Shown here one piece after another: positions 2,037-26,709 of a DNA stretch of 35,238 nucleotides (positions are counted from its first letter, which is position 1; each line of letters begins with the position of its first letter). The notes below the pieces were generated by a model. It did not search any database, had not been told where the DNA came from, and was given only the letters and a program-made list of their open reading frames with translations. The position numbers were made by a program, and so were the translations under genes. This DNA comes from a virus, in UHGV virus genome UHGV-0365687; one strand, written 5' to 3'.

Positions 2037-3221
2037 ATGAGTGAAACTCGTTTTCATGGTGCCCGTGTTACGGAAAATACCGACCTGGTAACAGCGATTA
2101 ACGATGTTGATTCCAGCGTTATTGGTATCGTGGCAACGGCGGATGATGCGGACGCGAAGCTGTTCCCGCTGAACAAGCCCACACTGCTGACCCGCGTCAA
2201 TGACGTGCTGGGAAAATGCGGAACAACGGGGACGCTTTATCGTGCGCTTAAGGCCATCGCAGACCAGGTGAGCACAAAGGTGATCGTCGTTCGCGTGGCT
2301 GAACACAAAGAAGAAGACGAAAAGACGCAGGATCAACTGGTTATCGGTGGTTCTGAGGATGACGGCAGCTATACGGGGATGTATGCGCTGCTTGTTGCAG
2401 AGCAGGATGAAAGCATCGGATACCGTCCGCGTATTCTGGCCGCGCCGGAGCTGGACACGGAGGCGGTGACAAAATCCCTGTGCGTGATTGCGGGTAAACT
2501 GCGCGCATTTGTGTATGCCTCATGTCACGGCTGTAACACGATGGCTGAAGCGATTACCTACCGCCAGAAATTCAACGAACGTGAAGTGATGCTCTTATGG
2601 CCGGACTTCATCGCCTACAACCCGAAAAGTGGCGAAAACGAAACGTTCCCCGCGCCTGCTTATGCGTGCGGCCTTCGTGCGTACATTGACCATGAGCAGG
2701 GCTGGCACAAATCGCTGTCCAACGTTCCGGTTAAAAATGTGCTGGGGATGTCGAGGCATGTGTTCTGGTCGTTGCAGGCCGAAGACAGCGATGCCAACAG
2801 CCTCAACAACAAAGAAATCACGACCATTATTCGTCGCAACGGGTTCCGCTTCTGGGGCAACCGCACACCGGAAACGAACGCCTACATTTTTGAGGTGTAT
2901 ACCCGAACCGCACAGGTGCTGGCTGATTCAATTGCGGAAGCGCAGTTTGAAACCATCGACAGTCCACTGACGCCTGCGAACGTGAAGGATGTTATCAGTG
3001 CCATCAGGGCAAAACTGGATTCACTGGTGACTGCCGGGAAACTGATTGGCGCGGAGTGCTGGTATGACGTGGTGGATAACAGCACCACGGATTTACGTCA
3101 GGGGCGTGTGCGTATTCGCTACAAATATACGCCCGTTCCGCCACTGGAAGACATGGAGCTTTACCAGACGTTTACTGATGAATACTTTGAACCCGCATTT
3201 GCGGTGCTGGGAGGTGCCTGA
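2037..3221 (+). CDS. FI: contractile tail sheath protein FI
   Basis: 394 aa, P2 FI-like sequence; stop overlaps FII start (ATGA). Confidence 0.9.
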   Translation: MSETRFHGARVTENTDLVTAINDVDSSVIGIVATADDADAKLFPLNKPTLLTRVNDVLGKCGTTGTLYRALKAIADQVSTKVIVVRVAEHKEEDEKTQDQLVIGGSEDDGSYTGMYALLVAEQDESIGYRPRILAAPELDTEAVTKSLCVIAGKLRAFVYASCHGCNTMAEAITYRQKFNEREVMLLWPDFIAYNPKSGENETFPAPAYACGLRAYIDHEQGWHKSLSNVPVKNVLGMSRHVFWSLQAEDSDANSLNNKEITTIIRRNGFRFWGNRTPETNAYIFEVYTRTAQVLADSIAEAQFETIDSPLTPANVKDVISAIRAKLDSLVTAGKLIGAECWYDVVDNSTTDLRQGRVRIRYKYTPVPPLEDMELYQTFTDEYFEPAFAVLGGA

Positions 3222-3733
3222 TGGCTGTGCCAAAACATCTTCGCTTTTTTACGCTGTTTGTGGATGGTGAAAACGAAGTGGGTAAGGTGACGTCCGTCAC
3301 TTTGCCTAAGCTGACGCGCAAAACCGACAGCTACCGGGGTGGTGGCATGATGGGGGCGGTAAGTATTGATCTCGGTCTGGACGACTCCGCGCTTGATGCG
3401 AGCTTTGTCATGGGGGGCGCAGTTCGTGAGCTGTTCCTTAAGTATGGCGGCACGATTGACGGCACGCTGCTGCGTTTTGCGGGTGAATACTACACCGATG
3501 CAGAAAGCGACCTGTATGAAGTCGAAATGCGCGGACGTGTGACGGAAATTGATATGGGGGAAGCCAAACAGGGCGAAGCCACATCACACACTTACGCCAT
3601 TAAAAACACCTACTACAAGCTGAGTGTTAACGATCGTCCGTTGTGGGAGATTGACCTGCTGAACTTCATTTACCGGAAGGACGGCAAGGACATTGTGCCC
3701 GATCGCATCCGTTCCGCGCTTGGGTTTGGCTGA
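3221..3733 (+). CDS. FII: tail tube protein FII
   Basis: 170 aa directly after the sheath gene, P2 FII-like. Confidence 0.88.
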   Translation: MAVPKHLRFFTLFVDGENEVGKVTSVTLPKLTRKTDSYRGGGMMGAVSIDLGLDDSALDASFVMGGAVRELFLKYGGTIDGTLLRFAGEYYTDAESDLYEVEMRGRVTEIDMGEAKQGEATSHTYAIKNTYYKLSVNDRPLWEIDLLNFIYRKDGKDIVPDRIRSALGFG

Positions 3734-3787
3734 TAAGTAATATGCAGGCGGCGCAGTGCGTCGCCTCTGACTGAAAGGAGTTTCCTG

Positions 3788-4153
3788 ATGAAAGAGACGA
3801 AAAACATCGATACCGAAAACACGGTAGTTACTGACACTGTGAAAGAAACCAGTGAGCGTGGCGTAAAACTTACCCAACCCATTGAGCGAGGCGGCGAAAA
3901 AATCACGTATGTGGAGATCACCGGGGCTATTGAGCAGGCTGGATCTCTGCGAGATTTGTCGCTGTCTGATGTGCTGAATCTGAAAGCGGAATCCATGTTT
4001 ACGCTGCTGTCACGCGTGACATCACCGCGACTGGATGAAGTGACGATCAAAAAAATGGCATCCCGTGACTTTATTCAGTTATGTGTGGTTGCCGTAAATT
4101 TTTTGAGCGGTGCGGACTCTGGCGGGAAGAACGAACAGGCGACGGAAGCCTGA
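3788..4153 (+). CDS. E: tail assembly chaperone E
   Basis: Position between tube and tape-measure genes; GAAAGGAG RBS; contains slippery heptamer. Confidence 0.8.
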   Translation: MKETKNIDTENTVVTDTVKETSERGVKLTQPIERGGEKITYVEITGAIEQAGSLRDLSLSDVLNLKAESMFTLLSRVTSPRLDEVTIKKMASRDFIQLCVVAVNFLSGADSGGKNEQATEA

Positions 4154-4317
4154 TCACGGTTGTGTGCTTTGAGCGCATAGAAGACTTTGTGGCAGATATT
4201 GCCGTTATTTTTAACTGGTCGCCCGCCGAAATCTTCATGATGACGCCCGGCGAAGTGGTTAGCTGGCGTGAGCGGGCGGCACTTCGCAGCGGGAATGCAG
4301 ACAATGAAGACTCTTGA
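3788..4317 (+). CDS. E': tail assembly chaperone E+E' fusion by programmed -1 frameshift at T_TTT_TTG (4099-4105)
   Basis: Slippery heptamer sits in the E frame as T TTT TTG; the -1 frame is open from there to the stop at 4315-4317 (ORF 4081..4317). Confidence 0.65.
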
Positions 4318-7111
4318 TATCCGGGTCGCTTTCAGCGCCGTTGACAGGCTGACCCGACCTGCCGAAAACGCCCGCCGCCTGATGGGGCAGTTTGGTGACT
4401 CCATCCAGCGAACGCAGGGGGCGATCAAAAATCTCGAGCGTCAGGCGCGTTCATTTGAGCGCGCCCGCGACGCTGTCAGTAAAGCGGATGCGGGTATCGT
4501 GAAAGCGCGACGCCAGCTTAACGCCCTTAATCAGTTACAACGCACGGGTACAGTGCTCAGCGAAAAACAACAAAAGCTGATGCAGCAGTTAAGCACCCGG
4601 CTTGAACGCCTGAATGAATCGCGCACGCGGGAAATTCAGAAAATGCGGGAGCTTGGCGGAGAGCTGAAACGCCACGGCATTTCCCTGACAGGCAGCGATA
4701 ACACCATCCAGCAGGCCATCAGACGCACCGAACAATACAACAACCAGCTTGAACGCGAACGGCAGGCGCTTGCGCGTGTAACGCGGGCGCGTGAGCGGTA
4801 TTCGCGCGCGCAGGAAACAGCGGGAAAACTGAAAACAGGTGGTGCGCTGGCAATTGGTGCGGCAGCGGCGGGCGGCTATGCTGCCGGGCGTTTTTTGCAG
4901 CCTGCGATCGGGTTCGGGAAAGAGATGTCCCGCGTTCAGGCGCTGACGCGAATCGACCAGAACAGCCCACAGTTTAAGGCGCTGCGTGAGCAGGCGTTAA
5001 AACTTGGCTCTGAAACGCAGTTCACCGCTGGAGATGCCGCCAGTGGACAGGCATTTCTTGCAATGGCTGGCTTCACACCACAGGCCATTCAGGCTGCGCT
5101 TCCCGGTGTGCTGAGCATGGCAACGGCTGGCGGTATGGATCTTGGCGAGACGGCGGATATTGGCTCAAACATCCTGACGCAGTTCGGCCTTTCTGCCGAC
5201 CAGATGGACCGGGTCGGTGACACGCTCACCGGAGCGTTTACCCGTACCAACACTGACCTTCGCGCACTGGGCGAAACCATGAAATATGCAGGTCCGGTGG
5301 CGGGCAAGCTGGGAATATCGCTGGAGCAGGCCGCAGCGATGGCGGGCGTGCTGGCGAATATGGGTATCAGGGGAAGTGATGCCGGGACGGCAATGCGTGC
5401 CAGCCTGGCTCGTCTGGCATCACCGCCAAAGGCGGCAGCAGAGGCGCTGAAAGAGCTTGGTGTGGCAGTCTCTGACGCGAACGGCAAAATGCGCCCGATG
5501 GAGGATGTGCTGGCCGACCTTTATAAAGCCACCCGCAAATACGGGGAAGTTGACCGGGTATCGTTCTTTAAGGACATTGCCGGAGAAGAGGCTTTCACAT
5601 CGTTTATGGCGCTCGTTGATGCAGCGGGTGACGGCTCCTTACCTAAACTGAGAAAAGAACTTGAAGGCGCGCGCGGTGAGGCTGAACGCACAGCAAAGGT
5701 TATGGCCAACAACCTTGACGGCGATCTGAAATCACTCAGCAGTGCATGGGAAGGGTTGCGCATCCGCATTGCAGATCTGATTGACGGTCCGCTGCGTTCT
5801 GTCACGCAGTGGCTCACGCGAGTGGTCTCAAAGGTGACGGCGCTGGCGCAGGCCCATCCCGCACTGACGCGCCAGCTACTGATTGCAGGCGGTGCGTTGC
5901 TGGCAATGACTGCAACGGTTGGCTCGTTGTCGCTGGCTATTGGTGTGCTTGCTGGCCCGCTGGCAAAACTGCGTCTTGGTTTTTCTCTCCTGACCGGATC
6001 AATGAATGCTGTCAGGGTCCTGCCAGCACTATGGGGAATGGTGACGGGTTCCGTTTCTTTGCTGGGAGGTGCTATCGGGGCGCTGTTCAGTCCGGTCGGG
6101 TTGATTGCTGCTGCGTTTGTGGCTGCGGCGGTTCTCATCTGGAAATACTGGGAACCCATCAAGGCGTTTTATGCCGGGGTGTTCAGCGGGATTATGGAAA
6201 GGCTGACCCCGTTGCGCGAAACCTTTGAACGGTTTGGTCCTGTTTTTGACGCAATCGGAAGCGGGATCAGCCAGGCGTTTAACTGGTTTAAATCGCTGCT
6301 GTCACCGATGGAGTCCAGCAAGGAAACGCTGGATAAATGTACCAGTGCTGGCGAGATATTCGGTAACGTTCTTGGCGGTGCGTTACAACTTGTTCTGACG
6401 CCTGCAAAAATGCTACTGGATACGCTGGCGTGGATACTTGAAAAACTTGGCGTCCTTCCGGATGAAGCGGAAAGGGCGCGCAAGAAAATCGAAGACGCAC
6501 AGCGTGCGGCCATTCTTCAGGACAAGGTTGCCTTGCTTCAGGGGGACCTGGCGAAAATCAATCCGCCGAAGCCTGTGGAAAATGGCAATGGCACCGGAGG
6601 TGATAAACCCAAAGACAACAAACCGCTCACAGACAGCAATACCGGTACGCTACGCAGACTCAGCAAAATTGCTGATAACACAGGTAAGCTGGTTGATGAG
6701 ACGAAAAAACGCATTGGCCCCGGCGATATTGTCTTTAAGAACCTGCCCCGCGCACTTGCTGTTCGTGGGGAGTGGCAGGAGCGGAAGATTGCGCAGATCA
6801 GTAAGCCTGCTTCCGCAATCAACATCACACCCGTGGTCCCGACTCCTCTGCCTCCGGCGCTGGTCCCTGTTGTTGCGGCCAGCTCCCGCCCGGTGGCGGA
6901 GGCCATACGATCGCCAGTGGCATCAGTTCCTGCAACTTCCCGTAACCGGGAGCCTGTTGTCTCCGGATTTGGCGGTGAAATTCATGTTCATCTGCATAAC
7001 GTTGTTACGCAGAATCCCCGCGAACTGGCGAAACTGGTCGGTGAAATGGTCAGGGCAGAATTGGAACGACGCGACCGTGCCGGACGTGGCAGTTTTTACG
7101 ATAAAGATTGA
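4304..7111 (+). CDS. T: tail tape measure protein T (start uncertain: GTG 4268, ATG 4295 or ATG 4304)
   Basis: 947 aa frame with coiled-coil N-terminal part, Gly/Ala-rich hydrophobic centre, position after E/E'. Confidence 0.85.
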   Translation: MKTLDIRVAFSAVDRLTRPAENARRLMGQFGDSIQRTQGAIKNLERQARSFERARDAVSKADAGIVKARRQLNALNQLQRTGTVLSEKQQKLMQQLSTRLERLNESRTREIQKMRELGGELKRHGISLTGSDNTIQQAIRRTEQYNNQLERERQALARVTRARERYSRAQETAGKLKTGGALAIGAAAAGGYAAGRFLQPAIGFGKEMSRVQALTRIDQNSPQFKALREQALKLGSETQFTAGDAASGQAFLAMAGFTPQAIQAALPGVLSMATAGGMDLGETADIGSNILTQFGLSADQMDRVGDTLTGAFTRTNTDLRALGETMKYAGPVAGKLGISLEQAAAMAGVLANMGIRGSDAGTAMRASLARLASPPKAAAEALKELGVAVSDANGKMRPMEDVLADLYKATRKYGEVDRVSFFKDIAGEEAFTSFMALVDAAGDGSLPKLRKELEGARGEAERTAKVMANNLDGDLKSLSSAWEGLRIRIADLIDGPLRSVTQWLTRVVSKVTALAQAHPALTRQLLIAGGALLAMTATVGSLSLAIGVLAGPLAKLRLGFSLLTGSMNAVRVLPALWGMVTGSVSLLGGAIGALFSPVGLIAAAFVAAAVLIWKYWEPIKAFYAGVFSGIMERLTPLRETFERFGPVFDAIGSGISQAFNWFKSLLSPMESSKETLDKCTSAGEIFGNVLGGALQLVLTPAKMLLDTLAWILEKLGVLPDEAERARKKIEDAQRAAILQDKVALLQGDLAKINPPKPVENGNGTGGDKPKDNKPLTDSNTGTLRRLSKIADNTGKLVDETKKRIGPGDIVFKNLPRALAVRGEWQERKIAQISKPASAINITPVVPTPLPPALVPVVAASSRPVAEAIRSPVASVPATSRNREPVVSGFGGEIHVHLHNVVTQNPRELAKLVGEMVRAELERRDRAGRGSFYDKD

Positions 7112-7123
7112 GGAGTCATGGCC

Positions 7124-7612
7124 ATGATGATGATCTACGGCATGTTTGTTTTTGAGCTGCGTACATTGCCGCATCAACAGTTACAGCAAAACAAAAGCTG
7201 GCGGCATGTGAAAAATGAACGCGTTAACCGTTCAGCAAGCTGGCAGTATATCGGTGCAGGTGATGATCGCATCGTTCTTTCTGGTGTGCTTTATCCTGAA
7301 ATTACAGGTGGCGAAGTGTCGCTGTCGCTGCTGACCACGCAGGCGTATACAGGACGACCCTGGCCTTTGATTGATGGTGTCGGGCAGATTTACGGCATGT
7401 ATGTGCTGACTGAAACGAATACGACCCGTTCCGAGTTTGATCGCTACGGTAAGGCGAAAAAGATAGAATTTTCACTGACTCTTGAACGCTGTGATGAGGA
7501 TTTGCGGGAGCGCCTGCAATCCTCATCGTTCAGTGATATGCTGTCCGGCTTCAAAGATAAGGTCACATCATCCCTTAACAGCGCGGCCAGCTCCGTTAAA
7601 GGGCTGTTTTGA
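7124..7612 (+). CDS. U: tail protein U
   Basis: P2 U-like; ATG at 7124 has better RBS spacing (GAGGAG 7110-7115) than ATG 7118. Confidence 0.8.
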   Translation: MMMIYGMFVFELRTLPHQQLQQNKSWRHVKNERVNRSASWQYIGAGDDRIVLSGVLYPEITGGEVSLSLLTTQAYTGRPWPLIDGVGQIYGMYVLTETNTTRSEFDRYGKAKKIEFSLTLERCDEDLRERLQSSSFSDMLSGFKDKVTSSLNSAASSVKGLF

Positions 7613-7622
7613 TTAACGCAAA

Positions 7623-7657
7623 ACCGCTAATGGTCAGATTAGCGGTTATTTTGTTTT
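7623..7657. terminator. intrinsic terminator hairpin (9 bp stem accgctaat/attagcggt) with T-tract, between convergent U and invertase genes
   Basis: Perfect inverted repeat 7623-7631/7638-7646 followed by tattttgtttt; A-run on the other side. Confidence 0.6.
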
Positions 7658-8233
7658 CTGACTCTTCTCTATTGTTCCGCTTGATTCTCCTGCGGGGTGG
7701 TAACGATAAATCGTCGATGTACCAATGCCGTAAATTATTGCCAGTTGTTTTCTGTCGTGACCGTTTTTAATCAGCCTTGCTATTTGCTCATGCTGTTCTT
7801 TTGTCAGCTTCGGGCGACGTCCGCCTGTGCGCCCCCGTGCGCGCGCTGCTGCCAGTCCGGCCAGTGTACGTTCAACGATTAATTCACGTTCCATTTCAGC
7901 CAGGGCACCCATAACGTGGAAGAAAAAACGCCCCATTGGAGAAGATGTATCTATGCTGTCGGTCAGACTGCGAAAATTAATCCCTCGCTCCTGTAGTTCC
8001 CCGACGAGAGAAATCAGATGTTTCATGCTTCGCCCGAGGCGATCCAGTTTCCAGACAACCAGCGTGTCACCTTTTTGAAGGCGCTTTAAAGCGCGTTTTA
8101 ATCCCGGTCAGTCTGTCTTTGTCCCGCTTAATTTATCTTCAAATATTTGTTCACATCCTGCACAAACAAGAGCGTTTCGTTGCAGGTCTGTATTCTGGTC
8201 ATTTGTTGATACCCTTACATAGCCAATCAGCAC
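7646..8233 (-). pseudogene. Gin/Pin/Cin/Hin-family serine DNA invertase, interrupted by in-frame TGA at 8108-8110 (codon 42)
   Basis: Manual translation from GTG 8231-8233: (M)[40 protein letters not shown]-stop-PGLKRALKRLQKGDTLVVWKLDRLGRS then the ORF-track frame MKHLISLVGEL...; continuous invertase homology across the stop. Confidence 0.75.
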
Positions 8234-8287
8234 GCTGAATCTCCCGTCCAAAAGCGTAAATCATGCCATGCAGGTCAGAAACGGCCA

Positions 8288-8315
8288 TTATCTAAAACCT
8301 CGGTTTGCAGGAAAC
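8288..8315. repeat. gix/cix-like recombination site (left boundary of invertible segment)
   Basis: ttatctaaaacctcggtttgcaggaaac; inverted copy of the site at 11232-11259; resembles the gix consensus from memory. Confidence 0.7.
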
Positions 8316-9201
8316 GGTAAACAAGGCTGGTAACGCCGTTCAGCGTTCCGGTGATAAAATGACCGGAGAACTGAAAATTGGCACGGTGAATGCGCTGCGA
8401 ATTTTCAATGATGCCTTCGGTCTTATTTTCCGTCGTTCAGAAGAGCACCTTCATTTCATCCCTACGGCTGAAGGACAAGGCGAAAACGGTGATATCGGCC
8501 CATTAAGGCCATTCGCTATAAATCTGAGAACAGGTGCTATATTTGTCAACCACGGGGCCAAAATTGAAGGAGGTCTAGCTATTGGTGCTACTGATAACGC
8601 ACTGGGTGAAAACTCCATTGTTCTGGGAGATAACGACACCGGATTTAGGCAAGATGGAGATGGTTTTATTAGCATCTTTTCAAATGGTTCGCGCATAGGA
8701 CATATTGATGAGTTAGGATTACATATTTATAAAGATATTGAATCTAATGGCAGCAATTTTAGATTAAAAGGTGATTACCGCCACCACATTACATTCGCCA
8801 ACGAAGACGGAAGTATTCGTATGTTTTTGTGGAAAGATAAAGATGGTGATGGTGTTCATATTAATAATGGTTCAAGCGGTGGCGGTGATTTCGTTTTTAA
8901 AACAGATGGGGGATTTGCGCTGGGAAGTGGTGCGCAAGTTGCGTCTAATGGCGATATTTATGGTTCAGTGTGGGAAAACAACTGGTTAAGCACATGGCTG
9001 CATAATCATGTCGTTCGGGATATTCGTCTTGGCAGCATTGAATATAAAAACGTATGGCGCGACTACGGCTTTGGCGATGCGTCAGGTTATGTTTTAACAG
9101 CCGCAATTAACAGCAATGCGGATGATATTGTCGACACTGTTGCCAGAAGGCCAATTCAGAAATTGATTGGGGGAATATGGTACAACGTGGGGAGTGTTTA
9201 A
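8305..9201 (+). CDS. alternative tail-fibre C-terminal cassette (Sv'-like), promoterless and startless in the current orientation
   Basis: Frame opens at the crossover site ([12 protein letters not shown]...), matching the H constant/variable junction; ends with the PIQ...WYNVGSV motif shared with H. Confidence 0.7.
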
Positions 9202-9202
9202 G

Positions 9203-9730
9203 ATGATGCACCTGAAAAATATTAAGGCCGGGAATCCGAAAACACCGGAACAATACCAGCTAACTAAAAAAGCGGGCGTGGTATGGTTCTTTTGCGAAGA
9301 TGGCAAAAACTGGTATGAGGAACAAAAGAATTTTCAGCCAGACACCATAAAAATTGCTTACGATGAGAACAACATCATCGTTGCTGTCAGTAAAGACGTT
9401 TCAACTATTAATCCTGAAGGGCTAAGCATAGTTGAAGTTCCTGATATTACGGCAAATCGTCGCGCAGACAATAACGGAAAATGGATGTTTCTGGATGGTA
9501 AAGTAGTAAAGAGGGAATATACAGAACAGGAACTGCAACAACAGGCCGAATCACAAAAGGCCGCGTTACTTTCCGAAGCAGAAAGCGTTATTCAGCCACT
9601 GGAACGCGCCGTCAGGCTGAATATGGCGACGGATGATGAACGCGCACGACTGGAGTCATGGGAACGCTACAGTGTTCTGGTCAGCCGTGTGGATACGGCA
9701 AATCCTGAATGGCCACAAAAGCCTGAATAA
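9203..9730 (+). CDS. tail fibre assembly protein (alternative, U'-like)
   Basis: [14 protein letters not shown]...; N-terminal ~90 aa nearly identical to the 9759..10292 product, C-terminus divergent. Confidence 0.75.
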
Positions 9731-9735
9731 AAATT

Positions 9736-9755
9736 AAGGCCCGATATCGGGCCTT
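9736..9755. terminator. palindromic hairpin aaggcccgatatcgggcctt between the two convergent fibre-assembly genes
   Basis: Perfect palindrome read directly. Confidence 0.4.
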
Positions 9756-9758
9756 CTC

Positions 9759-10292
9759 TCATTCTGGTTGTTCGGGAAACGTTACTGGCAGGCAGGAGGT
9801 GTCTGTGGATTCGACTTTCTGCGCATAGAGCATCCACTCGGTTAATTTTTGTTTATTCTCGTCGGAAATGATGCCCATCCGTAGCTGTGAGTCCCATAGC
9901 TGGGTTTTATCCCTGACAAGTTGCAACAGGCTTTGCTTTTCATTCTCTGCCTGCTGCCTCTGTTCCTCCTCGGTATAAGTTCGCTTTATCACTACGCCAT
10001 CTTTGAACATCCATTTACCCGAAATATCAGCCCGGCGATTTGCTGTAATATCAGGTAATTCAACGACGCTTGCGCCTTCTGGATTAATTGCTGAAACATC
10101 CTTTTCAATACAAATAATAACGCCGTTGTGGTCATAGACCATTTTCAACGTATCAGGCTGAAAGTTCTTTTGTTCCTCATACCAGTTTTTCCCATCCTCT
10201 GTATAAAGCCATTTGATGTTAAATTGTTTCGTTAGCTGGTATTGCTCTTTTGTTTTAGGGTTGCCAGCAGTAATATTTTTTAAGTGCATCAT
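9759..10292 (-). CDS. G: tail fibre assembly protein (expressed orientation)
   Basis: 177 aa immediately downstream of H on the same strand. Confidence 0.8.
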   Translation of the reverse strand: MMHLKNITAGNPKTKEQYQLTKQFNIKWLYTEDGKNWYEEQKNFQPDTLKMVYDHNGVIICIEKDVSAINPEGASVVELPDITANRRADISGKWMFKDGVVIKRTYTEEEQRQQAENEKQSLLQLVRDKTQLWDSQLRMGIISDENKQKLTEWMLYAQKVESTDTSCLPVTFPEQPE

Positions 10293-10294
10293 AA

Positions 10295-12391
10295 TTAAAT
10301 ACTCCCCGCGTTATACCACGTTCCATTAATGCAATACTGAATTGGCCTTGCCTGTGTTGTATCAATTAATTCATCACGGTTCCCGTTAACTGACCCCGTA
10401 ACGACATAACCTGACCTGTCAGACCAACCGGGACCATTCCATGTCTGAACAGATGACAGACCGCCAAGGCGAATACCTGTAATAAACCTTGAGTTACATT
10501 CTGCCTGCGTGTATGCACCAACATCTCCCGCAGAGGGTTTGCGGGTCGTGGTGTAAAACTCTGACCAGTCAGCCTCAAATCCATAACCATCACGCGCTGA
10601 ACGATAAAAAATACCGCCGTTCCTGTAATTCACGCGGAACTGTACAGCAGGGCAACTCCCCGCATTCATATTGAAGTGGAGGATTAATGTCGATGCATTG
10701 CTGATATCTGCATCATAAACACCGCTATTCCAGTTCCAGCCAACAGATTTATCATTTGCAACCCTGCTTCCTGTTTGCCCTAAAGCAAATGCAGGCTGCT
10801 GGTTTTTCGTGTTGTAGTCTCGTCGCCAGCCAGGAGCATAAGCATCACCATGATTAATATAAGTGAATTGAGCGTTAGTAATTCCGCCACCGCTGGAAGT
10901 GCTCGGGGTGGTTACACGGATGGTCATGGCACCTTTATTACCCATAACCTCAATAACGCAACCTGCAAGATGAATAGTTCCACAGCCAGTATCGGTAATA
11001 ATTTTATTATTGCCGTATGACCATGAACATTTGCACATCCAGTATGGGTGATTGAATGCCCCTTGAGAATCCAGCCATTCAATCAATTGTGCCGTCGTCC
11101 AGTTCCCTGCACCTGTACTAATAGAACTGTGAAAAGCGCGACATGCACCAATATTTTTTGTGAAGGTATCTTTTCCTGGAATATCTGCGCCGTTCTGGTT
11201 TTTCTGCAATGCGCCTGAAGCCTGATTTATCGTTTCCTGCAAACCGAGGTATTCGATAACGGCGGCAACGGTCGATTTCGCAAGAATATCCCGCCCGACT
11301 TTTGTCAGAGTTGCCAGGCTGGCGACATCATTCCCCGTAAAATACGGAAACCTGTCTGCCGCAGTAGCAAGCCCGGCCAGCGCCGTCAGGGTGGCATCTT
11401 TCGGTTGCTTACCCGCAAGCGCGTTAGTCATGGTGGTCGCAAAATTCGGGTCGTTGCCCAACGCCGCAGCCAGCTCGTTTAGCGTATTCAGTGCGTCAGG
11501 CGACGAGTCCACGAGGGCAGCGATCGCAGCCATAACGAAAGCCGTGCTTGCGATTTGGGTATTATTCGTTCCCTGTCGCGCAGTTGGCGTTGTTGGCGTT
11601 CCGGTCAACGCAGGACTGTTTAAGGGCGCTTTCTTGTTCGTTTCATCCATTACCGCCTTAACCGCTTTCGATGTCGCGGCCAGTGTTTCAGACGTGCTGT
11701 TGGTTGCACTGCTGAGCTGGACTATCCCTTTTCGTGCCGTCGTGGCGTCCTGAGCGGTATATTTTCCGTTAGCCAGGTCATACGCGGCCTTAACCGCTTT
11801 CGGCGTTGCGGCCAGCGTTTCAGAATCGCTGTTAGTGGCGCTACTGAGTTGAACAAAGCCTTTTGCGGTCAGCGAGGCATCCGGGTGACGTCGTGACTGT
11901 TCATGCTCTTTCAGTTTGTCATCCACGTAATCCACTGTGGCCATCACCATGGTGTTATCCACGGTAAGCGCCACGCTGGCAGTGCTGGATACGGTCAGAA
12001 TGGTGCGAAATGTTTGTGCACGTCCGGACCCCTCGGCAACGGTTGGCTTGTAACTTTCGGCAGTATTGCCCACCGCGATTAAATCGCCGTGCTCATCAAA
12101 TACACCAATTTCCCGGATCCAGAATCCGCCCGTTTCAGGAGGAATAACCAGCTCCGCAATAATGCGGTTCTGATGTGTTGCGTCCAGGATGACGCGATTA
12201 ACAGTGTGTCGCCACACCTCATGCACCAGACGGGTCTGCTTACTGTCTGGTGTGGGCAACGTGCCGCCACCGTCGCCCACGGCCATATGAGTCAGGCGGA
12301 CAGGCTTACCATCTGGCGCGGCTGCCTGAGCTAATTTTTTTGCACCCGTATCGGTGATAACGGTTTTAAATTTTCGTGTTGTGGTACTCAT
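10295..12391 (-). CDS. H: tail fibre protein H (constant N-terminal part plus currently joined variable C-terminal cassette)
   Basis: 698 aa; N-terminus and collagen-like repeats resemble P2 H; gix-like site lies inside the gene at the constant/variable junction (LGLQET). Confidence 0.9.
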   Translation of the reverse strand: MSTTTRKFKTVITDTGAKKLAQAAAPDGKPVRLTHMAVGDGGGTLPTPDSKQTRLVHEVWRHTVNRVILDATHQNRIIAELVIPPETGGFWIREIGVFDEHGDLIAVGNTAESYKPTVAEGSGRAQTFRTILTVSSTASVALTVDNTMVMATVDYVDDKLKEHEQSRRHPDASLTAKGFVQLSSATNSDSETLAATPKAVKAAYDLANGKYTAQDATTARKGIVQLSSATNSTSETLAATSKAVKAVMDETNKKAPLNSPALTGTPTTPTARQGTNNTQIASTAFVMAAIAALVDSSPDALNTLNELAAALGNDPNFATTMTNALAGKQPKDATLTALAGLATAADRFPYFTGNDVASLATLTKVGRDILAKSTVAAVIEYLGLQETINQASGALQKNQNGADIPGKDTFTKNIGACRAFHSSISTGAGNWTTAQLIEWLDSQGAFNHPYWMCKCSWSYGNNKIITDTGCGTIHLAGCVIEVMGNKGAMTIRVTTPSTSSGGGITNAQFTYINHGDAYAPGWRRDYNTKNQQPAFALGQTGSRVANDKSVGWNWNSGVYDADISNASTLILHFNMNAGSCPAVQFRVNYRNGGIFYRSARDGYGFEADWSEFYTTTRKPSAGDVGAYTQAECNSRFITGIRLGGLSSVQTWNGPGWSDRSGYVVTGSVNGNRDELIDTTQARPIQYCINGTWYNAGSI
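11232..11259. repeat. gix/cix-like recombination site (right boundary, inside H)
   Basis: gtttcctgcaaaccgaggtattcgataa; 20 bp core identical in inverted orientation to 8297-8316. Confidence 0.7.
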
Positions 12392-12393
12392 GC

Positions 12394-12924
12394 TTAATCG
12401 TCCGGATAAATGGTAATAACTTCACCGTCATAAGTTGCCGCCGCTGCGAAAATACCCCCCGGAATTTCCTGAATGATATTCAGCCCTGTCATGTGGCGGC
12501 TGACCGGACGGGCATCAGCAATCAACCGCTCCATTTCCAGATACATTTCCTCCGTCACGCCACTGTCCAGTGTGCCGACTTCAACGGTAAATGTTCCCGG
12601 TTCTCCGCCGAACTCCCACCATTCAGACACGCGAATGAGGTATCCCAGCGGCTCAATGGCCCTGCGCAGTGCGCTGATGGTCCCTTTGTGTCGGTGTATC
12701 AGCCATGCATCACGAATAACCTGTCGCTTTGTCTCTTCCGGCCAGTTGCGATCCCAGCGGTCAACGGAAAATGCCCAGGCGAGATAGGGCAGCAGATGCA
12801 CCGGACAGGTATCCGGCGACCACAGTGTGTTGAGGTCTACCGGAATGTCTGTAATGCGTGTTCCGACGGCTTCGGCACAACGCATGAAATTGCTGGCTGA
12901 TGGTGGTAACAACGAATTACTCAT
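12394..12924 (-). CDS. I: baseplate assembly protein I
   Basis: P2 I-like; start refined to MSNSLLPP with GAAGGTGG RBS. Confidence 0.8.
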   Translation of the reverse strand: MSNSLLPPSASNFMRCAEAVGTRITDIPVDLNTLWSPDTCPVHLLPYLAWAFSVDRWDRNWPEETKRQVIRDAWLIHRHKGTISALRRAIEPLGYLIRVSEWWEFGGEPGTFTVEVGTLDSGVTEEMYLEMERLIADARPVSRHMTGLNIIQEIPGGIFAAAATYDGEVITIYPDD

Positions 12925-13813
12925 TGCGCCCACCTTCGCTGATGGTGAACGACTCACAGCGCGCCGCCTGTATGTCGCTGATGGACATATTCTGTGTGGG
13001 TTCGATTATCTCCACGCGTTGCACACCGTGCACATGCAGTGCGGCAGCAATGGCGGACAACGCCACGTCCTGACCGATAAGCCCCTGCTCAGCCAGCCAC
13101 TTCCTGAACGACGATTCCGCCGCAGCCAGAATAGGTTCGGATTCCGGACCGGGGTAAAAGTACAGTTTTGCATTCAGCCGCCATGTCACGATTCTGGCGC
13201 TCTGTACGGTCAGGCGGTCGGCCACCGGGCGGGTATCCTCTGCATTCAGAACGGCGCGAACGGTATTAAGCAACGCCTCCGTTGCTGTGCCGTCGCCCTC
13301 AGTGGACAGGATGGAAACCGTCACATTTGCCGGAGACGGACTGATAGCCCGCGCATCACGCACCAGACCGCTGGCGCTGCGGGCAAAATACTCGTATGCA
13401 CCTGACGGGCCAGCAACACTCAGGCCGTCGTACGCCCGCTGCGCCCGCAGTCTCAGCGAGGTGTCACTTTCCATCACTGCGTCGGTGGTATCCGTTGCCG
13501 GAGTGATGGTCAGGCGCTTTGTGTTCATATTGCCCGCGAGGTTGTCCAGGTCTGTCCCGGCGCTGTGGCTTAACATGCAGGCGCGTGCCCCCTCATTGAC
13601 CCGCTGGCGTAACAGCATTTCACGAAACGCTGTTGTCTGGGCGATAACGTTCAGGGGTTCCGATTCCAGCTCCAGCGCGGCGGAGACGGCTTCACGCTGT
13701 TCGGCGGGATAAGCCGCAATCATCATGGCCTTTGTGTCAGCCAGAATTGCCTCAAAGTCAGGCTCCGCGATGATGGCGGGGTCCGGTAACTGTGAAAGGT
13801 CAACGGCGGGCAT
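12917..13813 (-). CDS. J: baseplate assembly protein J
   Basis: 298 aa, P2 J-like, correct position. Confidence 0.85.
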   Translation of the reverse strand: MPAVDLSQLPDPAIIAEPDFEAILADTKAMMIAAYPAEQREAVSAALELESEPLNVIAQTTAFREMLLRQRVNEGARACMLSHSAGTDLDNLAGNMNTKRLTITPATDTTDAVMESDTSLRLRAQRAYDGLSVAGPSGAYEYFARSASGLVRDARAISPSPANVTVSILSTEGDGTATEALLNTVRAVLNAEDTRPVADRLTVQSARIVTWRLNAKLYFYPGPESEPILAAAESSFRKWLAEQGLIGQDVALSAIAAALHVHGVQRVEIIEPTQNMSISDIQAARCESFTISEGGRNE

Positions 13814-13816
13814 GAT

Positions 13817-14167
13817 TTACTCCCTTAGCGTGATGGTTAATTCAACATTCTGCATGGTCTGCATGACAGTGCCCGACAGCGTCGCCCCGGCGCGGCCTCC
13901 CGCTTTCCAGACAACGTCGATGGCATCCAGGGCAATGCGGGGTTCCCATCGTGTCAGCGCAATCACGGCAGCACTCATGCATTGCAGACGCGTGGTGTTA
14001 TTCATGGGTTCGTCAATCAAATCAGGCACAAGGCTGCCATATTCCCGTCGCATAACCCGGCTTGCCAGCGGGGTGGTCAGGATATCCCTGACTGACTGTT
14101 TCAGGTGCTCCATATCGTTCAGGTTTCCCGTCCCGTCCGGATTCATTCCTGTGTAGCGGGTTGTCAC
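13817..14167 (-). CDS. W: baseplate wedge protein W (gp25-like)
   Basis: 116 aa, position and size. Confidence 0.8.
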   Translation of the reverse strand: MTTRYTGMNPDGTGNLNDMEHLKQSVRDILTTPLASRVMRREYGSLVPDLIDEPMNNTTRLQCMSAAVIALTRWEPRIALDAIDVVWKAGGRAGATLSGTVMQTMQNVELTITLRE

Positions 14168-14745
14168 TGCGGGCCTCCTGTCGAATCGCTGCCGCCTTTC
14201 ACGCCACCGTGTTTATGCGTATGCACTGTGATGCCGTTTGAGGTGAAATTGCCGCCGCTGTGCGTGATATTGCCGCTCATCTTTCCCCCTTTTGTGACGT
14301 CAAGCGTCGCCGTTCTCAGAAGGTTTGTGCATTCCACGACGGGCGTGTCCAGTTTCACGCTGACGGATGCCTGTAAAGTGGCCGTTTTCATGCCGCTGGC
14401 GCTCAGTGCGCCTGCGTCCGCGTCGTAGCGGAACACCGCGCCGTCCGGCGCGCTGATCACGATTTCTTTCAGGCTTTTGCCGGGGGCCGGACTGGCATCA
14501 CTCCACAGGCTGCCAATTATCATGGCGGTTTCCGGGTTGCCGCCAATGCAGGCAATTACTACCTGTTCGCCTGGTGATGGCGGCAGCCACACATTGAAGG
14601 CTCCCGCGCGCGTGGTGTTCCAGCGCAGCCAGCCTGTTTCCAGTTCGCCGCTGCGAACGCGCACGCGCCAGGACTTCTCATCAACTTCAGAGATGATCCC
14701 GGTGCGGATGATATTGCTCAGCAGTCGCATGAGTTCTGCGCTCAC
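14164..14745 (-). CDS. V: baseplate spike/assembly protein V
   Basis: 193 aa, position and size. Confidence 0.8.
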   Translation of the reverse strand: MSAELMRLLSNIIRTGIISEVDEKSWRVRVRSGELETGWLRWNTTRAGAFNVWLPPSPGEQVVIACIGGNPETAMIIGSLWSDASPAPGKSLKEIVISAPDGAVFRYDADAGALSASGMKTATLQASVSVKLDTPVVECTNLLRTATLDVTKGGKMSGNITHSGGNFTSNGITVHTHKHGGVKGGSDSTGGPQ

Positions 14746-15386
14746 CGTACAGCCTCCGCAATCCGGCCCAGCACCGTGTTATAAATCAGGCGCTCATCTG
14801 CCTGGCTGATACCCAGCAGCTCACGTACCGGGTAATCGGTGAAAATGCCCGGCGCAACCTGATCGCGCTCACCGAACTGATGAACGCGGGCAATACGTGC
14901 GGCCACGCCGCTGTAACCCACCGTCACACCGGAAGCATCTGCACGGGCTTTCAGGTAGCGGGCGGTGCGCAGTTTTACGAACATGGGGACGCGCTTTGTG
15001 CTGTCCTGGTTGATGCGCCGGGTGCGTATTTCCAGAAAACGGTCGATGTCATCCCGGTAAAACGTGCGGATATTGTTTTTATCCTCATCCCACCCGGTAA
15101 TGGTTCGCCCGTATTTCCCCGTGTCGTGATGCCAGTTTTTCAGCGTGCGTGCTTCGTTATTCCAGATAAAGCGAATGCGTTCCTGTATCCGGGTTACGCG
15201 GCGTCTGCGTGGTGTCCATGCGGTCCCGTCTGGCGCTTTCTGTGACCGGATGCGCGCCTGCTGGGCGCGGCGTAAATCCTGTGCCAGCTTTCTGGCGATG
15301 TTATTGATGGCCTGCTGATTCAGGCTGTCGCGGATGGCCTCAAAGGTTTCATCCACGCGGGTGAATGCCTTATCCATCGCTTTCAC
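14742..15386 (-). CDS. S: tail completion / virion morphogenesis protein (S-like)
   Basis: 214 aa in the S position of the P2 order. Confidence 0.65.
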   Translation of the reverse strand: MKAMDKAFTRVDETFEAIRDSLNQQAINNIARKLAQDLRRAQQARIRSQKAPDGTAWTPRRRRVTRIQERIRFIWNNEARTLKNWHHDTGKYGRTITGWDEDKNNIRTFYRDDIDRFLEIRTRRINQDSTKRVPMFVKLRTARYLKARADASGVTVGYSGVAARIARVHQFGERDQVAPGIFTDYPVRELLGISQADERLIYNTVLGRIAEAVR

Positions 15387-22555: not shown

Positions 22556-23601
22556 TGAGCAGAAAAAATAAAAAAGTGCGCATGAGTTCACGCATTGATC
22601 TCGCTGATGCGCTCAGGAAAGAATCGTCGCTCAGTGCATTCACATTTGATGGTCCTTACCGCCTGACCGGGCATGACCTGCTGGACAATATGTACTGTGC
22701 TGATAACGGGCGGTGGTATGAAACCCCGGTGGACTGGTACGGTCTGGCAAGAGCTGCCCGGCAAACGTCCTGGCATCAGTCTGCGCTTTACTTTAAGCGT
22801 AATGTATTGCTCGGCTGCTATATTCCGCATCCGCTGCTTTCCCGGCAGGATTTCTCGGCGCTGGCGCTGGACTGGTTTGTGTTCGGTAACGCATTCCTTG
22901 AGCTTCGGAGCAATATGCTCGGCGAACCACTTAAATTACGGCACGCACTGGCGAAATACATGCGACGCGGAAGCGATCTTGAATCATGGTGGTATGTGCA
23001 GGATGGCAAGGACGCGTTTCAGTTTCGCCCTGGCAAAGTGTGCCACCTGATGAATCCGGACATTAACCAGGAAATTTACGGCATGCCGGAATATCTTGGC
23101 GCATTACTCTCGGCCAGCCTGTCTCATTCGGCGGACATGTTCAGAAAACTGTATTACGACAATGGATCCCACGCCGGGTGCATCATCTACATCGGTGCAG
23201 CGCAGGTAAACCGCGAAAGCATGGACTCCCTGAAAGAAACGCTACAGGGTGCGCGTGGTGGTGGCGCGTTTAAAAACGTGCTCATCCATGCGCCCAACGG
23301 GGGCAAAGAGGGGGTGCAAATTTTGCCGTTCCAGCAGATCACCGCAAAGGATGAGTTCATGAATGTTAAGGCGGCATCCCGTGATGATGTGCTGGCTGCG
23401 CACCGCGTTCCGCCGCAACTGATGGGGGCGATGCCGGGCGAAAAAAGTGCGTTTGGTGATGTGGAGAAGGCCGCGCGGGTTTACGCAATTAACGAGCTGA
23501 TGCCCGTCATGGAGGCCATGAAGCACATCAATGACTGGCTTGGCGAAGAGGTGATCCGCTTTAACCCTTACGCACTGTTAGACACCCAGCCCACATCCTG
23601 A
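22555..23601 (+). CDS. Q: portal (capsid vertex) protein Q
   Basis: 348 aa, P2 Q-like. Confidence 0.88.
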   Translation: MSRKNKKVRMSSRIDLADALRKESSLSAFTFDGPYRLTGHDLLDNMYCADNGRWYETPVDWYGLARAARQTSWHQSALYFKRNVLLGCYIPHPLLSRQDFSALALDWFVFGNAFLELRSNMLGEPLKLRHALAKYMRRGSDLESWWYVQDGKDAFQFRPGKVCHLMNPDINQEIYGMPEYLGALLSASLSHSADMFRKLYYDNGSHAGCIIYIGAAQVNRESMDSLKETLQGARGGGAFKNVLIHAPNGGKEGVQILPFQQITAKDEFMNVKAASRDDVLAAHRVPPQLMGAMPGEKSAFGDVEKAARVYAINELMPVMEAMKHINDWLGEEVIRFNPYALLDTQPTS

Positions 23602-23739
23602 CGCGCTTCGCTTGTCTGCTGCTTCGCCGGGGCATAAAAAATTTATGCCCCGACTCTCCAGCTCCTGTATCAATCAGATAATTTCACGACGCTTTTCTGC
23701 TTATTGCCATCATCGGCGGTCAGACTCTTACGCAATCCT

Positions 23740-23790
23740 ACCGCGTTGACTGCATGTTCTTCGCCGCCTCAGTGCGATTTTGACGGCCTT
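23740..23790. other. approximate position of cos (cohesive-end site)
   Basis: GC-rich sequence gcactgaggcggcgaag (minus strand) partly resembles the P2 cos overhang as I recall it; about 150 bp beyond Q as in P2; not exactly matched. Confidence 0.25.
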
Positions 23791-23931
23791 ACCTTTCACC
23801 CCATCAAATCAGAATCCCTCACGTATTTTTCATGCTCAGCGTGAGAAATACAGCCATTCTGTTGTGTCTCTGCGACATCGTTCAGGGAATGCTATTTACC
23901 CCCTGAAACGCGGGCTGTTCCCCCGTCACCT

Positions 23932-23956
23932 GCGCGCAGAAAAAGCGCGTTTTTTT
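23932..23956 (+). terminator. intrinsic terminator (cgcgc/gcgcg stem, 7 T) ending the P-Q transcript
   Basis: Hairpin plus uninterrupted T7 tract on the plus strand. Confidence 0.55.
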
Positions 23957-24026
23957 GTGCACGCACGGATCCTTGACGGATCCAGCCGCCACGCGGGCCG
24001 GAAGGGCAAAAAGTCGTTCAAAAAAA

Positions 24027-24053
24027 TTGTGCAAATTTGTGCACTATTGTGCA
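24027..24053. repeat. three direct TTGTGCA repeats at exact 10 bp phasing
   Basis: attgtgcaaatttgtgcactattgtgcagc read directly. Confidence 0.6.
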
Positions 24054-24092
24054 GCATGGCGATGCGCGATTATCGCCCTGGTTTGAGGGGGA

Positions 24093-24632
24093 TTAGGTGT
24101 TATTTTTATCTGTCGTCAGTGGGCTAAACCATCCACGATTTACATCGCAGGACTGATGCGTTCTGTCCTCGTGTTTCTCCTGCCACAATGCTTTTCCGCC
24201 AGCCTTTATGATGGCTCTTTCAACATCCCGCTCGTATCGCAAGGGCTGAAATACGTCATTAATGAAATATTCGCTTATGTCCGGAAGCGATACAGCAAGA
24301 TTATTTGTTTGTTGCGCCGTCCGGCTATGCGACAAAGCGGCATACTTTAATGCGTCCTGTGCTTTCTGGAATTTAAGTGCATAGTCAGTGGCGATTTTTT
24401 CCAGTTCAGCGATGCGCTTTTTTGCTGTTTCCAGTTCATCCAGCAGTGCCAGCATGTCTTCCGGTCCAGCCAGAATTCTGAAGGTGTTGATCGCGTCAAT
24501 ATCCACACCGTAATCTTTAAGTTCCTGTTCGCTTAACAAATCATCATCAACTGGCAATATTAACAGGCGTTCCATTGCCGGAATTGCACGTTCTGCTGCC
24601 ATTTGTAGTGCCTGATAGTCAATTTTGCTCAC
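24093..24632 (-). CDS. Ead/Ea22-like protein (paralogue 2)
   Basis: MSKIDYQAL... N-terminus and KRIAELE coiled-coil as in Ead/Ea22-family prophage proteins; 4 nt overlap with upstream paralogue. Confidence 0.6.
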   Translation of the reverse strand: MSKIDYQALQMAAERAIPAMERLLILPVDDDLLSEQELKDYGVDIDAINTFRILAGPEDMLALLDELETAKKRIAELEKIATDYALKFQKAQDALKYAALSHSRTAQQTNNLAVSLPDISEYFINDVFQPLRYERDVERAIIKAGGKALWQEKHEDRTHQSCDVNRGWFSPLTTDKNNT

Positions 24633-25228: not shown

Positions 25229-25291
25229 TAAGTCGGTCTCCTTGTTTATGTTCTGAGGTGGAGATCAGGGCGAACACGCCCTGATGTTGTG

Positions 25292-25603: not shown

Positions 25604-25607
25604 TGGT

Positions 25608-26567: not shown

Positions 26568-26598
26568 GTCGCTTTTCCTTATGTTGATTAATTAATCG

Positions 26599-26709
26599 TT
26601 TACGGGATTCTGAAATCCCGTTTTTGTCTGTTTTGTGCTCGCTTCATATATCGCTGCGCGTTTTTTGCTCATTTACGGGATTCGTGAGTCCCGTTTCTGT
26701 CTGTTTTTT
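26599..26709. repeat. two ~36-38 bp direct repeats, each a palindromic hairpin plus T-tract (parC-like candidate)
   Basis: tttacgggattctgaaatcccgtttttgtctgtttt (26599-26634) and tttacgggattcgtgagtcccgtttctgtctgtttttt (26672-26709). Confidence 0.5.

Follow-up and report, generated by a model that had tools for sequence, protein, structure and literature searches.

A Mu-type invertible tail-fibre segment beside a nonsense-interrupted invertase gene in a P88-like Escherichia coli prophage

The window that we analysed, a stretch of 35,238 nucleotides of viral DNA (UHGV-0365687) that ends at prophage borders, quite probably carries a tail-fibre switch of the Mu G-segment type in a P88-like (Xuanwuvirus, P2-family) E. 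coli prophage whose own invertase is dead, and whose fibre segment has flipped since that mutation, most likely through an enzyme acting in trans. Systems of this type are already known, and the novelty of the find is low. The features of the locus, with their positions in the window, are these:

7622–7647, no strand assigned: hairpin followed by a T-run, between the ends of tail gene U (plus) and the invertase gene (minus)
7646–8233, minus strand: Gin/Pin-type serine DNA invertase gene, nonsense-inactivated (translation ...SGTKTD*PGLKRAL...)
8124–8233, no strand assigned: putative recombinational (Fis) enhancer, in the 5′-terminal 110 nt of the invertase gene
8288–8313: left crossover site, gix-type, 26 bp, TTATCTAAAACC-TC-GGTTTGCAGGAA, central dinucleotide at 8300–8301
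8302–11245: invertible segment proper, between the central dinucleotides, about 2.94–2.95 kb
8305–9201, plus strand: silent variable fibre end Sv′, 298 codons, without its own initiator
9203–9730, plus strand: silent tail-fibre assembly chaperone, Mu U type, 175 aa (Pfam Caudo_TAP, E = 1.9e-36)
9736–9755, no strand assigned: GC-rich hairpin AAGGCCCGATATCGGGCCTT, in the gap where the two chaperone genes converge
9759–10292, minus strand: expressed tail-fibre assembly chaperone, Mu U′ type, 177 aa (Pfam Caudo_TAP, E = 4.1e-36)
10295–12391, minus strand: ORF of tail-fibre gene H, open
10295–11245, minus strand: expressed variable fibre end Sv, the last ~316 residues of H, Mu S′ (G(−)) type
11234–11259: right crossover site, inverted, plus strand TTCCTGCAAACC-GA-GGTATTCGATAA, central dinucleotide at 11246–11247
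11246–12391, minus strand: constant part of H, residues 1 to ~382, outside the segment, which brings the start codon and upstream transcription

Crossover sites and the invertible segment

A sequence-only reading of this DNA had placed inverted 20-bp cores within gix-like sites on either side of the segment, and we recovered both. The cores at 8297–8316 and 11231–11250 are exact reverse complements (ACCTCGGTTTGCAGGAAACG) and sit within a 45-nt inverted repeat (8284–8328 and 11219–11263) that is 87% complementary. Moreover, a scan of the 35 kb for the gix pattern, with 3 mismatches allowed, returned exactly two sites, with 0 expected in 100 shuffles. These two inverted 26-bp sites have matching central TC/GA dinucleotides, as is characteristic of the crossover sites of Din-family segments. 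The left site differs from Mu gix (TTATCCAAAACCTCGGTTTACAGGAA, read from L007) by 2 mismatches, while the right site falls within gene H, codes for ...IEYLGLQET... in the H product, and on the minus strand reads TTATCGAATACC-TC-GGTTTGCAGGAA. Here, we noticed that the inner half-site GGTTTGCAGGAA has a G at both sites where Mu has an A, a variant that also occurs in the inverted isomer L025 described below, and that the outer half-site of the right site is one base off that of two relatives (L005/L006) that have demonstrably flipped. No third crossover site and no shufflon was found in the 35-kb window, even with 3 mismatches allowed.

Tail-fibre ends and chaperones

The constant N-terminal part of the fibre lies outside the segment, and two C-terminal parts with their cognate chaperones lie inside it. 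Pfam Phage_tail_fib (E = 1.1e-53) and Phage_fiber_2 are both recognized in the constant part of H, and residues 1–410 are 86% identical to H of P88. In the expressed orientation this region had been said to continue into one C-terminal domain, followed by the chaperone at 9759–10292, and the ORFs are indeed open as described. The expressed Sv shares 88% amino-acid identity with Mu S′ and finds 8ju3 ('Tail fiber protein S,S′') in the PDB with E = 4.4e-202; its coding region is about 88% identical in nucleotides to the Mu, D108, and P1 segments.

For the opposite orientation, a fusion of H at LQET to 8305–9201, with the second chaperone (9203–9730) behind it, had been predicted. When we inverted the segment in silico, this gave an uninterrupted fusion of 681 aa between the H constant part and Sv′ across the LGLQET junction, and exactly this protein is present in GenBank (WP_247188417.1). 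The frame at 8305–9201 was checked for disruption and is open, and the silent cassette is intact. Sv′ and the expressed Sv are related only at their ends, over the last 67 aa (42% identity). Its best match among sequenced phages reaches 45%, whereas matches above 90% come from E. coli, Shigella, and Salmonella prophages. In the PDB, an AlphaFold2 model of Sv′ (pLDDT 69.8) is matched best by 5yvq_A and 8ju3, both Mu fibres. From what is established for Mu, P1, and P2-type systems, it is reasonable to expect that the silent tip confers an alternative host range, and the orientation-dependent adsorption specificity of Mu G(+)/G(−) (PMC4406740) suggests by analogy that the two orientations would differ in this respect.

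The silent chaperone is 83% identical to the U proteins of Mu and D108. The expressed one is 97.7% identical to Mu U′, and its only relative found in the PDB was the Mu U chaperone 5yvq_B (E = 4.5e-63). When compared with each other, the two chaperones are 72% identical in the first 100 residues and 34% identical in the last 77; accordingly, the difference noted earlier between their C-terminal halves stands, while the N-terminal halves, then called almost identical, are better described as similar. The hairpin at 9736–9755 is likely a two-way terminator, and rho-independent terminators are annotated on both strands at the equivalent position in D108.

Invertase gene and putative enhancer

Next to the segment lies the gene of a small serine recombinase of the Gin/Hin subgroup. 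With its stop codon replaced, the product matches Pfam Resolvase (E = 1.3e-50) and HTH_7, and it is 99% identical to the invertase of P88 and 84.5% identical to Mu Gin. As it stands, the locus lacks the intact recombinase frame of a self-sufficient switch, for an in-frame TGA (plus strand 8108–8110) occupies codon 42, the equivalent of Hin Arg43. A single G-to-A change at base 8110 (A here, G in relatives) turns CGA into TGA, and over 728 nt the gene differs at a single base from that of strain T28R, the closest complete genome. The 41-residue N-terminal product keeps only Ser9, the catalytic residue of Gin (PMC3575834), and the 126-residue downstream ORF is without it. This TGA allele is carried by L009, L010, L013–L015, L017–L020, and L025, and it was found in at least 8 independent samples from NCBI, ENA, and Logan.

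The locus had previously been called intact, a term that holds for the segment and fails for the adjacent invertase gene, which lay just outside the coordinates then considered. The nonsense mutation in this Gin-like gene had been missed in that reading.

Over its first 110 nt the invertase gene matches the beginning of Mu gin at every base (100% DNA identity), synonymous positions included, and the start codon is spaced 67 bp from gix, as it is in Mu. In the Hin system the enhancer begins about 100 bp from hixL (PMC3798978); the position of 8124–8233 is consistent with this, and we infer that the interval may act as a Fis enhancer.

Occurrence of both orientations

Both orientations of the segment occur in nature. 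An E. coli contig (L025) is a precise inverted isomer of the window, in which exactly the interval 8302–11245 is turned, with its end points at the crossover sites, 1 SNP in 14 kb, and the same TGA. Likewise, assembly GCA_022970685.1 has the mutant invertase (L020) together with the inverted fibre gene (L026). Each of the two isomers is spanned by single contigs (L009/L010 and L025, respectively), and host assemblies are GCA_050939295.1 for the window isomer and GCA_036602815.1 for the inverted one. Moreover, strain 2020N21-110 and its derivative 2020N21-110-15 (L005/L006) have flanks that are 100% identical and differ by a 3124-bp inversion. In complete E. coli genomes searched at a coverage of at least 80%, the isomer of the window was found in 68 and the isomer inverted in silico in 62, with a median of 2 matching places for such prophages per genome. 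Among samples with the mutant allele, 5, with contigs that cross the left site, have the orientation of the window and only two or more are inverted, so that flipping in the TGA-allele lineage may be rare.

We had considered the switch to be 'locked', given that all 5 left-site-crossing mutant contigs were in the orientation of the window, and dropped this idea in view of L025 and L026, to which an exact search with the in-silico fusion protein led and in which the same allele goes with the inverted state. ETEC1706 (L003), which a junction search had returned as an inverted isomer, was also dropped, as it has the Sv′ type on both arms and frameshifted chaperones. To relate orientation to allele, we also scanned metagenomes with a degenerate junction pattern; this returned only 4 loci, none with the mutant allele.

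Proposed mechanism and alternative explanations

In the mechanism that we propose, a small serine recombinase of the Gin/Cin/Pin/Hin group would bind both inverted 26-bp sites, cut at the central TC/GA dinucleotide, and rotate the ~2.94 kb between them. Because H starts outside the segment, where its constant part also lies, each orientation would join it to one or the other of two C-terminal receptor-binding ends, unrelated to each other, and set the matching chaperone gene directly downstream of the fused H, while the other tip and chaperone, having no upstream constant part, would stay silent. In the present state of the window, the Mu S′/U′-type pair, which is that of Mu G(−), is predicted to be expressed, and Sv′ with the Mu U-type chaperone to be silent.

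In prophages that are virtually identical, the dead allele goes with either orientation, so that the segment has inverted since the invertase was mutated. The driver of this flip was most likely a related invertase encoded by another resident prophage and acting in trans. No such trans-acting invertase is seen within the window, which stops at the prophage borders. PinQ, PinR, and PinE each invert the P segment of e14, PinE also inverts the Mu G segment, and Fels-2 Fin inverts the Salmonella H segment (PMC12529663). Active inversion of P2-like prophage loci has been documented in enteropathogenic E. coli (EPEC) by sequencing and PCR (PMC4272514). Whether the locus is an 'orphaned' host-range switch, with its invertase lost and its fibre segment intact, still flipping and maintained instead of decaying, we regard as evenly balanced. 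If it is, invertases encoded by the cell's other prophages would set its host range, or else a host-serving use of the fibre products as reported for StfE2 of e14, amounting to a natural form of cross-prophage control.

We think it unlikely that the prophage's own enzyme still runs the switch, through occasional read-through of the TGA that would yield a little full-length invertase, enough for rare inversion. Some observations do fit this, in that the stop is a UGA followed by C, reportedly the context in which termination in E. coli is weakest (Poole et al. 1995), the ORF shows no damage apart from the stop and is 99% identical to the P88 invertase, and both orientations exist with the TGA allele. 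Nonetheless, UGA read-through in E. coli mostly inserts tryptophan, and function here would be restored only by the rare insertion of arginine. The codon is the one equivalent to Hin Arg43, where substitutions inactivate Hin (PMC3798978).

Clearly less probable again is a switch that was frozen by the mutation, with the two orientations explained by the same C-to-T change having arisen twice, or by recombination of the allele between prophages of opposite orientation, and with no flip thereafter. The 5 mutant-allele samples that share the window's orientation across the left site would suit such a history, and prophages of the P88-like family often co-occur, as the median of 2 matching places per genome indicates, which makes exchange possible. 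However, besides the inversion, a single SNP over 14 kb separates L025 from the window; one inversion event accounts for this far more simply than an independent origin or a recombinant patchwork would, and the end points of that inversion fall exactly at the crossover sites. Hardly credible, in our view, is the idea that assembly or sequencing produced an artefact, either in the stop codon or in the orientation, and that the switch is a fully standard, self-sufficient one. Only one base separates the gene from that of the closest complete genome, and short-read assemblies do break here, with L015 and L020 ending exactly at 8316, but the same base recurs in the independent samples listed above, and each isomer is spanned by single contigs.

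Significance

The value of the locus as a discovery is small. Invertible fibre segments of this kind have stood in textbooks since phage Mu, published work already covers both their occurrence and their activity in P2-like E. coli prophages, and RefSeq already has the proteins. The initial observation on this DNA was correct, and its interpretation is supported. A practical consequence is that annotation pipelines name the silent end a free-standing 'phage tail protein' and omit the invertase pseudogene, so host-range predictions based on such records can be one flip wrong. In addition, a dead-invertase lineage with both isomers offers a clean natural case of switches that do not depend on their own enzyme, and such independence bears on the engineering or 'locking' of phage host range.

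Comparison with known systems

The closest likeness is to the G segment and Gin of Mu (also D108 and SfMu), where the layout is the same, with the constant part outside and two opposed pairs of fibre end and chaperone inside. Mu and the window have the same 26-bp sites, and in both the invertase gene starts at the same distance from one of them. The U′, U, and S′-type parts are about 88% identical in DNA, and the proteins are 88% (S′), 97.7% (U′), 83% (U), and 84.5% (invertase) identical. In contrast, the constant part is Sc in Mu and P2 gpH-like in the window, and Sv′ is unrelated to the Sv of Mu or D108 except in the last ~65 residues. Also unlike in Mu, the invertase gene of the window is a pseudogene and adjoins the silent cassette, between two convergent operons. 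D108 was considered as a match to the whole segment and was rejected at the protein level, its Sv being unrelated to the silent tip.

The C segment and Cin of P1/P7 follow the same switching logic, with chaperone and S′-type regions that are 88–90% identical in DNA, though this segment is larger (4.2 kb) and is carried by an unrelated phage-plasmid whose constant part is not the same. Multiple-inversion systems, whether shufflon-like, the three-repeat EPEC P2-like locus, or Min of p15B, need at least 3 sites, from which more than two fibre ends result, and the window has two. In e14, the P segment, likewise a tail-fibre segment, is turned by Din-family invertases that are encoded elsewhere in the same chromosome (PMC12529663), and as such is a precedent for flipping in trans; however, e14 keeps a working PinE, and its sites and fibre genes differ from those of the window. 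A role in host defence has been reported for the inversion product of e14. A PADLOC scan of the accessory region of the window (23.7–26.6 kb) gave no matches.

Genome layout and invertase (99% amino-acid identity) are as in P88, other Xuanwuvirus members (520873, 503458, and P884B11), and the P2-like loci of EPEC E2348/69, although the invertases of these phages and loci are intact, unlike that of the window. The P88 record has the same Mu S′/U′-type cassette in the silent position, together with another cassette that has a different tip, and its H has an extra fibre repeat; the P88 paper makes no mention of inversion. In terms of DNA, the region is 91–93% identical to Xuanwuvirus over the aligning parts, which make up 47–70% of it. 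We also considered the FI–U block as a fossil of invertase action and rejected this, as there is no gix-like site at its borders and the layout is common to P88. The window and P88 in fact share the gene order D(−), FI–U(+), invertase(−), silent cassette(+), expressed cassette(−), and H–I–J(−). As in P88 and its relatives, a P2-type structural set is accompanied by FI–U on the opposite strand and by an invertase gene between U and the fibre genes, and we treat the opposite-strand block as a trait of the genus.

Prophage layout and the invertible segment

The window holds a complete P2-family prophage, its genes ordered from right to left as integrase, cox, gpA, capsid and lysis, baseplate V-W-J-I, tail-fibre H, FI-FII-E-T-U, D, and ogr. 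Around the fibre genes, the layout of D(-), FI-U(+), invertase(-), silent cassette(+), and expressed cassette(-) is the same as in Escherichia phage P88 (genus Xuanwuvirus) and many E. coli prophages. The features of this region are as follows.

Features of the invertible segment and its surroundings
7646-8233, -: Gin-type serine recombinase (invertase) gene adjoining the left site; 84.5% to Gin, 99% to P88 invertase
8288-8313: left crossover site, 26 bp, Gin/gix type, TTATCTAAAACC-TC-GGTTTGCAGGAA
8305-9201, +: silent tip Sv', open 298-codon frame beginning in frame inside the left site; best sequenced phage match, Yersinia Mu-like phages (45%)
9203-9730, +: second (silent) Caudo_TAP chaperone gene, after the 298-codon frame; closest to Mu U (83%)
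9736-9755: GC-rich hairpin between the two convergent chaperone genes
9759-10292, -: expressed Caudo_TAP chaperone gene, downstream of H; closest to Mu U' (97.7%)
10295-12391, -: tail-fibre gene H, 698 aa, with P2-type N-terminal collar domain and fibre repeats
10295-11245, -: expressed variable end of H, Sv; closest to Mu S', the G(-) fibre of solved structure 8ju3 (88%, E = 4.4e-202)
11234-11259, minus strand: right crossover site, 26 bp, Gin/gix type, TTATCGAATACC-TC-GGTTTGCAGGAA, inside H, encoding ...IEYLGLQET...

The FI-FII-E-T-U block (2037-7612, +) runs opposite to D/ogr (770-2011, -) and V-W-J-I-H (10295-15386, -), whereas in P2 these tail and baseplate genes are all co-directional. 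This opposite-strand block is common to P88 and its relatives, and our window scan found no gix-like site at its borders. The FI-U operon is convergent with the invertase gene and shares the direction of the silent cassette, so that terminator read-through at 7622-7647 could bring about transcription of the "silent" chaperone. Elsewhere, the portal gene and replication gene A are separated by an accessory region (23600-26600, -) that carries a ParM/StbA-type actin-like segregation protein (25608-26567), two Ead/Ea22-like proteins, and small unknown ORFs, a cargo unusual for a P2-type prophage, with no PADLOC hits for defence systems in this region. The replication protein (26644-29466, -) has 940 aa by longest ORF, with the GPA domain beginning at residue 179; P2 gpA is shorter.

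Crossover sites and fibre cassettes

The sequence-only reading placed inverted 20-bp cores at 8297-8316 and 11231-11250. They prove to be exact reverse complements and form part of a 45-nt repeat with 87% complementarity, and the limits given in that reading, 8288-11259, coincide exactly with the outer edges of both crossover sites. The counterpart in Mu, the gix site of the G segment, is TTATCCAAAACC-TC-GGTTTACAGGAA. Scanning the whole window with the gix pattern (up to 3 mismatches) gave exactly two sites, and none in 100 shuffles, which rules out a shufflon and indicates a simple two-state switch. We noticed that the inner half-sites (8302-8313 and 11234-11245) have a G in place of the A of Mu, P88, and most relatives (GGTTTGCAGGAA vs GGTTTACAGGAA). 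This variant, also found in relatives L001, L003, and L011, is common to a sub-lineage, and it is still compatible with inversion, as an inverted isomer bearing it exists (contig L025).

In-silico inversion of 8302-11245 gave an uninterrupted 681-aa fibre, and thus the proposed joining of H at LQET to an alternative C-terminal domain holds, with 8305-9201 open throughout. Sv and Sv' are unrelated apart from the junction residues and the last 67 residues (42% identical). The chaperones are indeed modular, with 72% identity over residues 1-100 and 34% afterwards, though calling their N-terminal halves almost identical was an overstatement. At the site of the hairpin between them, D108 has annotated terminators on both strands.

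Most of the invertible segment (9203-11259) shares ~88% DNA identity with the segments of Mu, D108, and P1. For Sv', no close relative was found among sequenced phages, though at >90% identity it is common in E. coli, Shigella sonnei, and Salmonella prophages, where it is always annotated just "phage tail protein". With Mu S and S', it has only the C-terminal ~65 residues in common. Its AlphaFold2 model (mean pLDDT 69.8) has Mu fibres 5yvq_A and 8ju3 as best PDB matches, by which Sv' is a predicted Mu-style fibre tip.

The constant part of H contains a 96-nt direct repeat (11655-11750 and 11787-11882, 75% identical, spacing 132) that corresponds to the Phage_fiber_2 repeat. P88 H has an additional copy of ~42 residues, and repeat number therefore differs among relatives. 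In E. coli ETEC1706 (L003; NZ_CP122904.1, locus 5387-8388), both segment arms have an Sv'-type end and are 97% identical to window 8288-9201, while both chaperone genes are frameshifted. This symmetrical, apparently degenerate segment possibly arose by gene conversion between arms.

A nonsense allele of the invertase gene

The invertase start codon lies 67 bp from the left-site centre, the same spacing as in Mu, and the first 110 nt of the gene are 100% identical to Mu gin. This fits the known placement of Fis-dependent enhancers in the 5' end of such genes, and a predicted enhancer would lie here; in the Hin system, it begins ~100 bp from hixL (PMC3798978).

The frame itself is broken (...SGTKTD*PGLKRAL...) by a TGA at + strand 8108-8110. 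Compared with the closest complete genome (strain T28R), there is one difference in 728 nt of the invertase region, an A rather than G at 8110, which turns codon CGA into TGA. The residue lost is equivalent to Hin Arg43, substitutions of which inactivate Hin (PMC3798978), and the 126-residue ORF downstream is without the catalytic Ser9 (PMC3575834). A sequencing error is ruled out by recurrence across independent isolates and assemblies, namely GCA_050939295.1, GCA_050938415.1, GCA_022970685.1, and GCA_036602815.1, as well as two ENA metagenome assemblies and several Logan assemblies. Two short-read contigs with the mutant invertase (L015 and L020) end exactly at window 8316, the innermost base of the 20-bp core, as assembly graphs break where two continuations exist; the cause could be a sequenced culture with mixed orientations or the presence of two related prophages.

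Inversion since the mutation

Both orientations occur in nature. Between strain 2020N21-110 and 2020N21-110-15, which was derived from it, the flanks are 100% identical and the proteins unchanged, but the 3124-bp stretch between the sites is inverted. Among complete E. coli genomes (coverage at least 80%) the window's arrangement is present in 68 and the in-silico inverted one in 62. Flipping was demonstrated experimentally for P2-like prophages of EPEC E2348/69 (PMC4272514). Moreover, the 681-aa fusion predicted from the window exactly matches a GenBank protein, WP_247188417.1, encoded on L025 (GCA_036602815.1). Over 14 kb, a single genuine SNP (window 12862) separates this contig from the window, apart from a precise inversion with its ends at the two sites, and the same TGA codon is present. 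Likewise, GCA_022970685.1 has the mutant invertase (L020) together with the inverted fibre gene (L026), while five other contigs (L009, L010, L013, L017, and L019) have the mutant allele in the window's orientation. As the allele is found in both orientations, at least one inversion followed the mutation: one mutant molecule cannot otherwise found both states. Our initial reading of a locked switch was overturned by these inverted isomers. That the mutation recurred independently, or that the allele moved between prophages by recombination, is unlikely given the single SNP separating the window and L025.

By analogy with Gin, Hin, and Cin, the recombinase would cleave at the central dinucleotide and undergo a 180-degree subunit rotation, in dependence on Fis and the enhancer, and expression would be limited to whichever cassette is joined to the constant part. 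As for the catalyst, there is a smaller possibility that the window's own invertase is made by read-through of its UGA-C stop, reportedly a weak termination context (Poole and colleagues, in 1995, are said to have found so), but only Arg insertion would restore the residue essential in Hin. Most likely, inversion is catalysed by a related enzyme whose gene lies elsewhere in the host. Cross-action among these enzymes is well documented: PinE acts on the Mu G segment as well as on the P segment of e14, which PinQ and PinR can also invert, and the Salmonella H segment is flipped by Fels-2 Fin (PMC12529663). One or more such loci occur in half of the complete E. coli genomes, and the median among genomes with any is two.

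Host range and comparison with known systems

Mu in its G(+) form has E. coli K-12 as host, while the hosts of its G(-) form are E. coli C, Enterobacter, Citrobacter, Serratia, Erwinia, and Shigella sonnei (PMC4406740). By this analogy, the window's present orientation would confer a specificity like that of Mu G(-), and the silent tip a different one. Nonetheless, the SfMu fibre is ~96% identical to Mu S', yet its receptor differs (PMC4406740).

The observation of an intact invertible segment with an alternative fibre cassette is thus confirmed, and its interpretation is supported by the sites, the two cassettes, and the natural inverted isomer. Both the type of element and the phage genus are known, and the proteins already have entries in public databases. 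The sole addition is the nonsense-mutated invertase with evidence of continued flipping, a neat, if unsurprising, illustration of trans-acting invertases.
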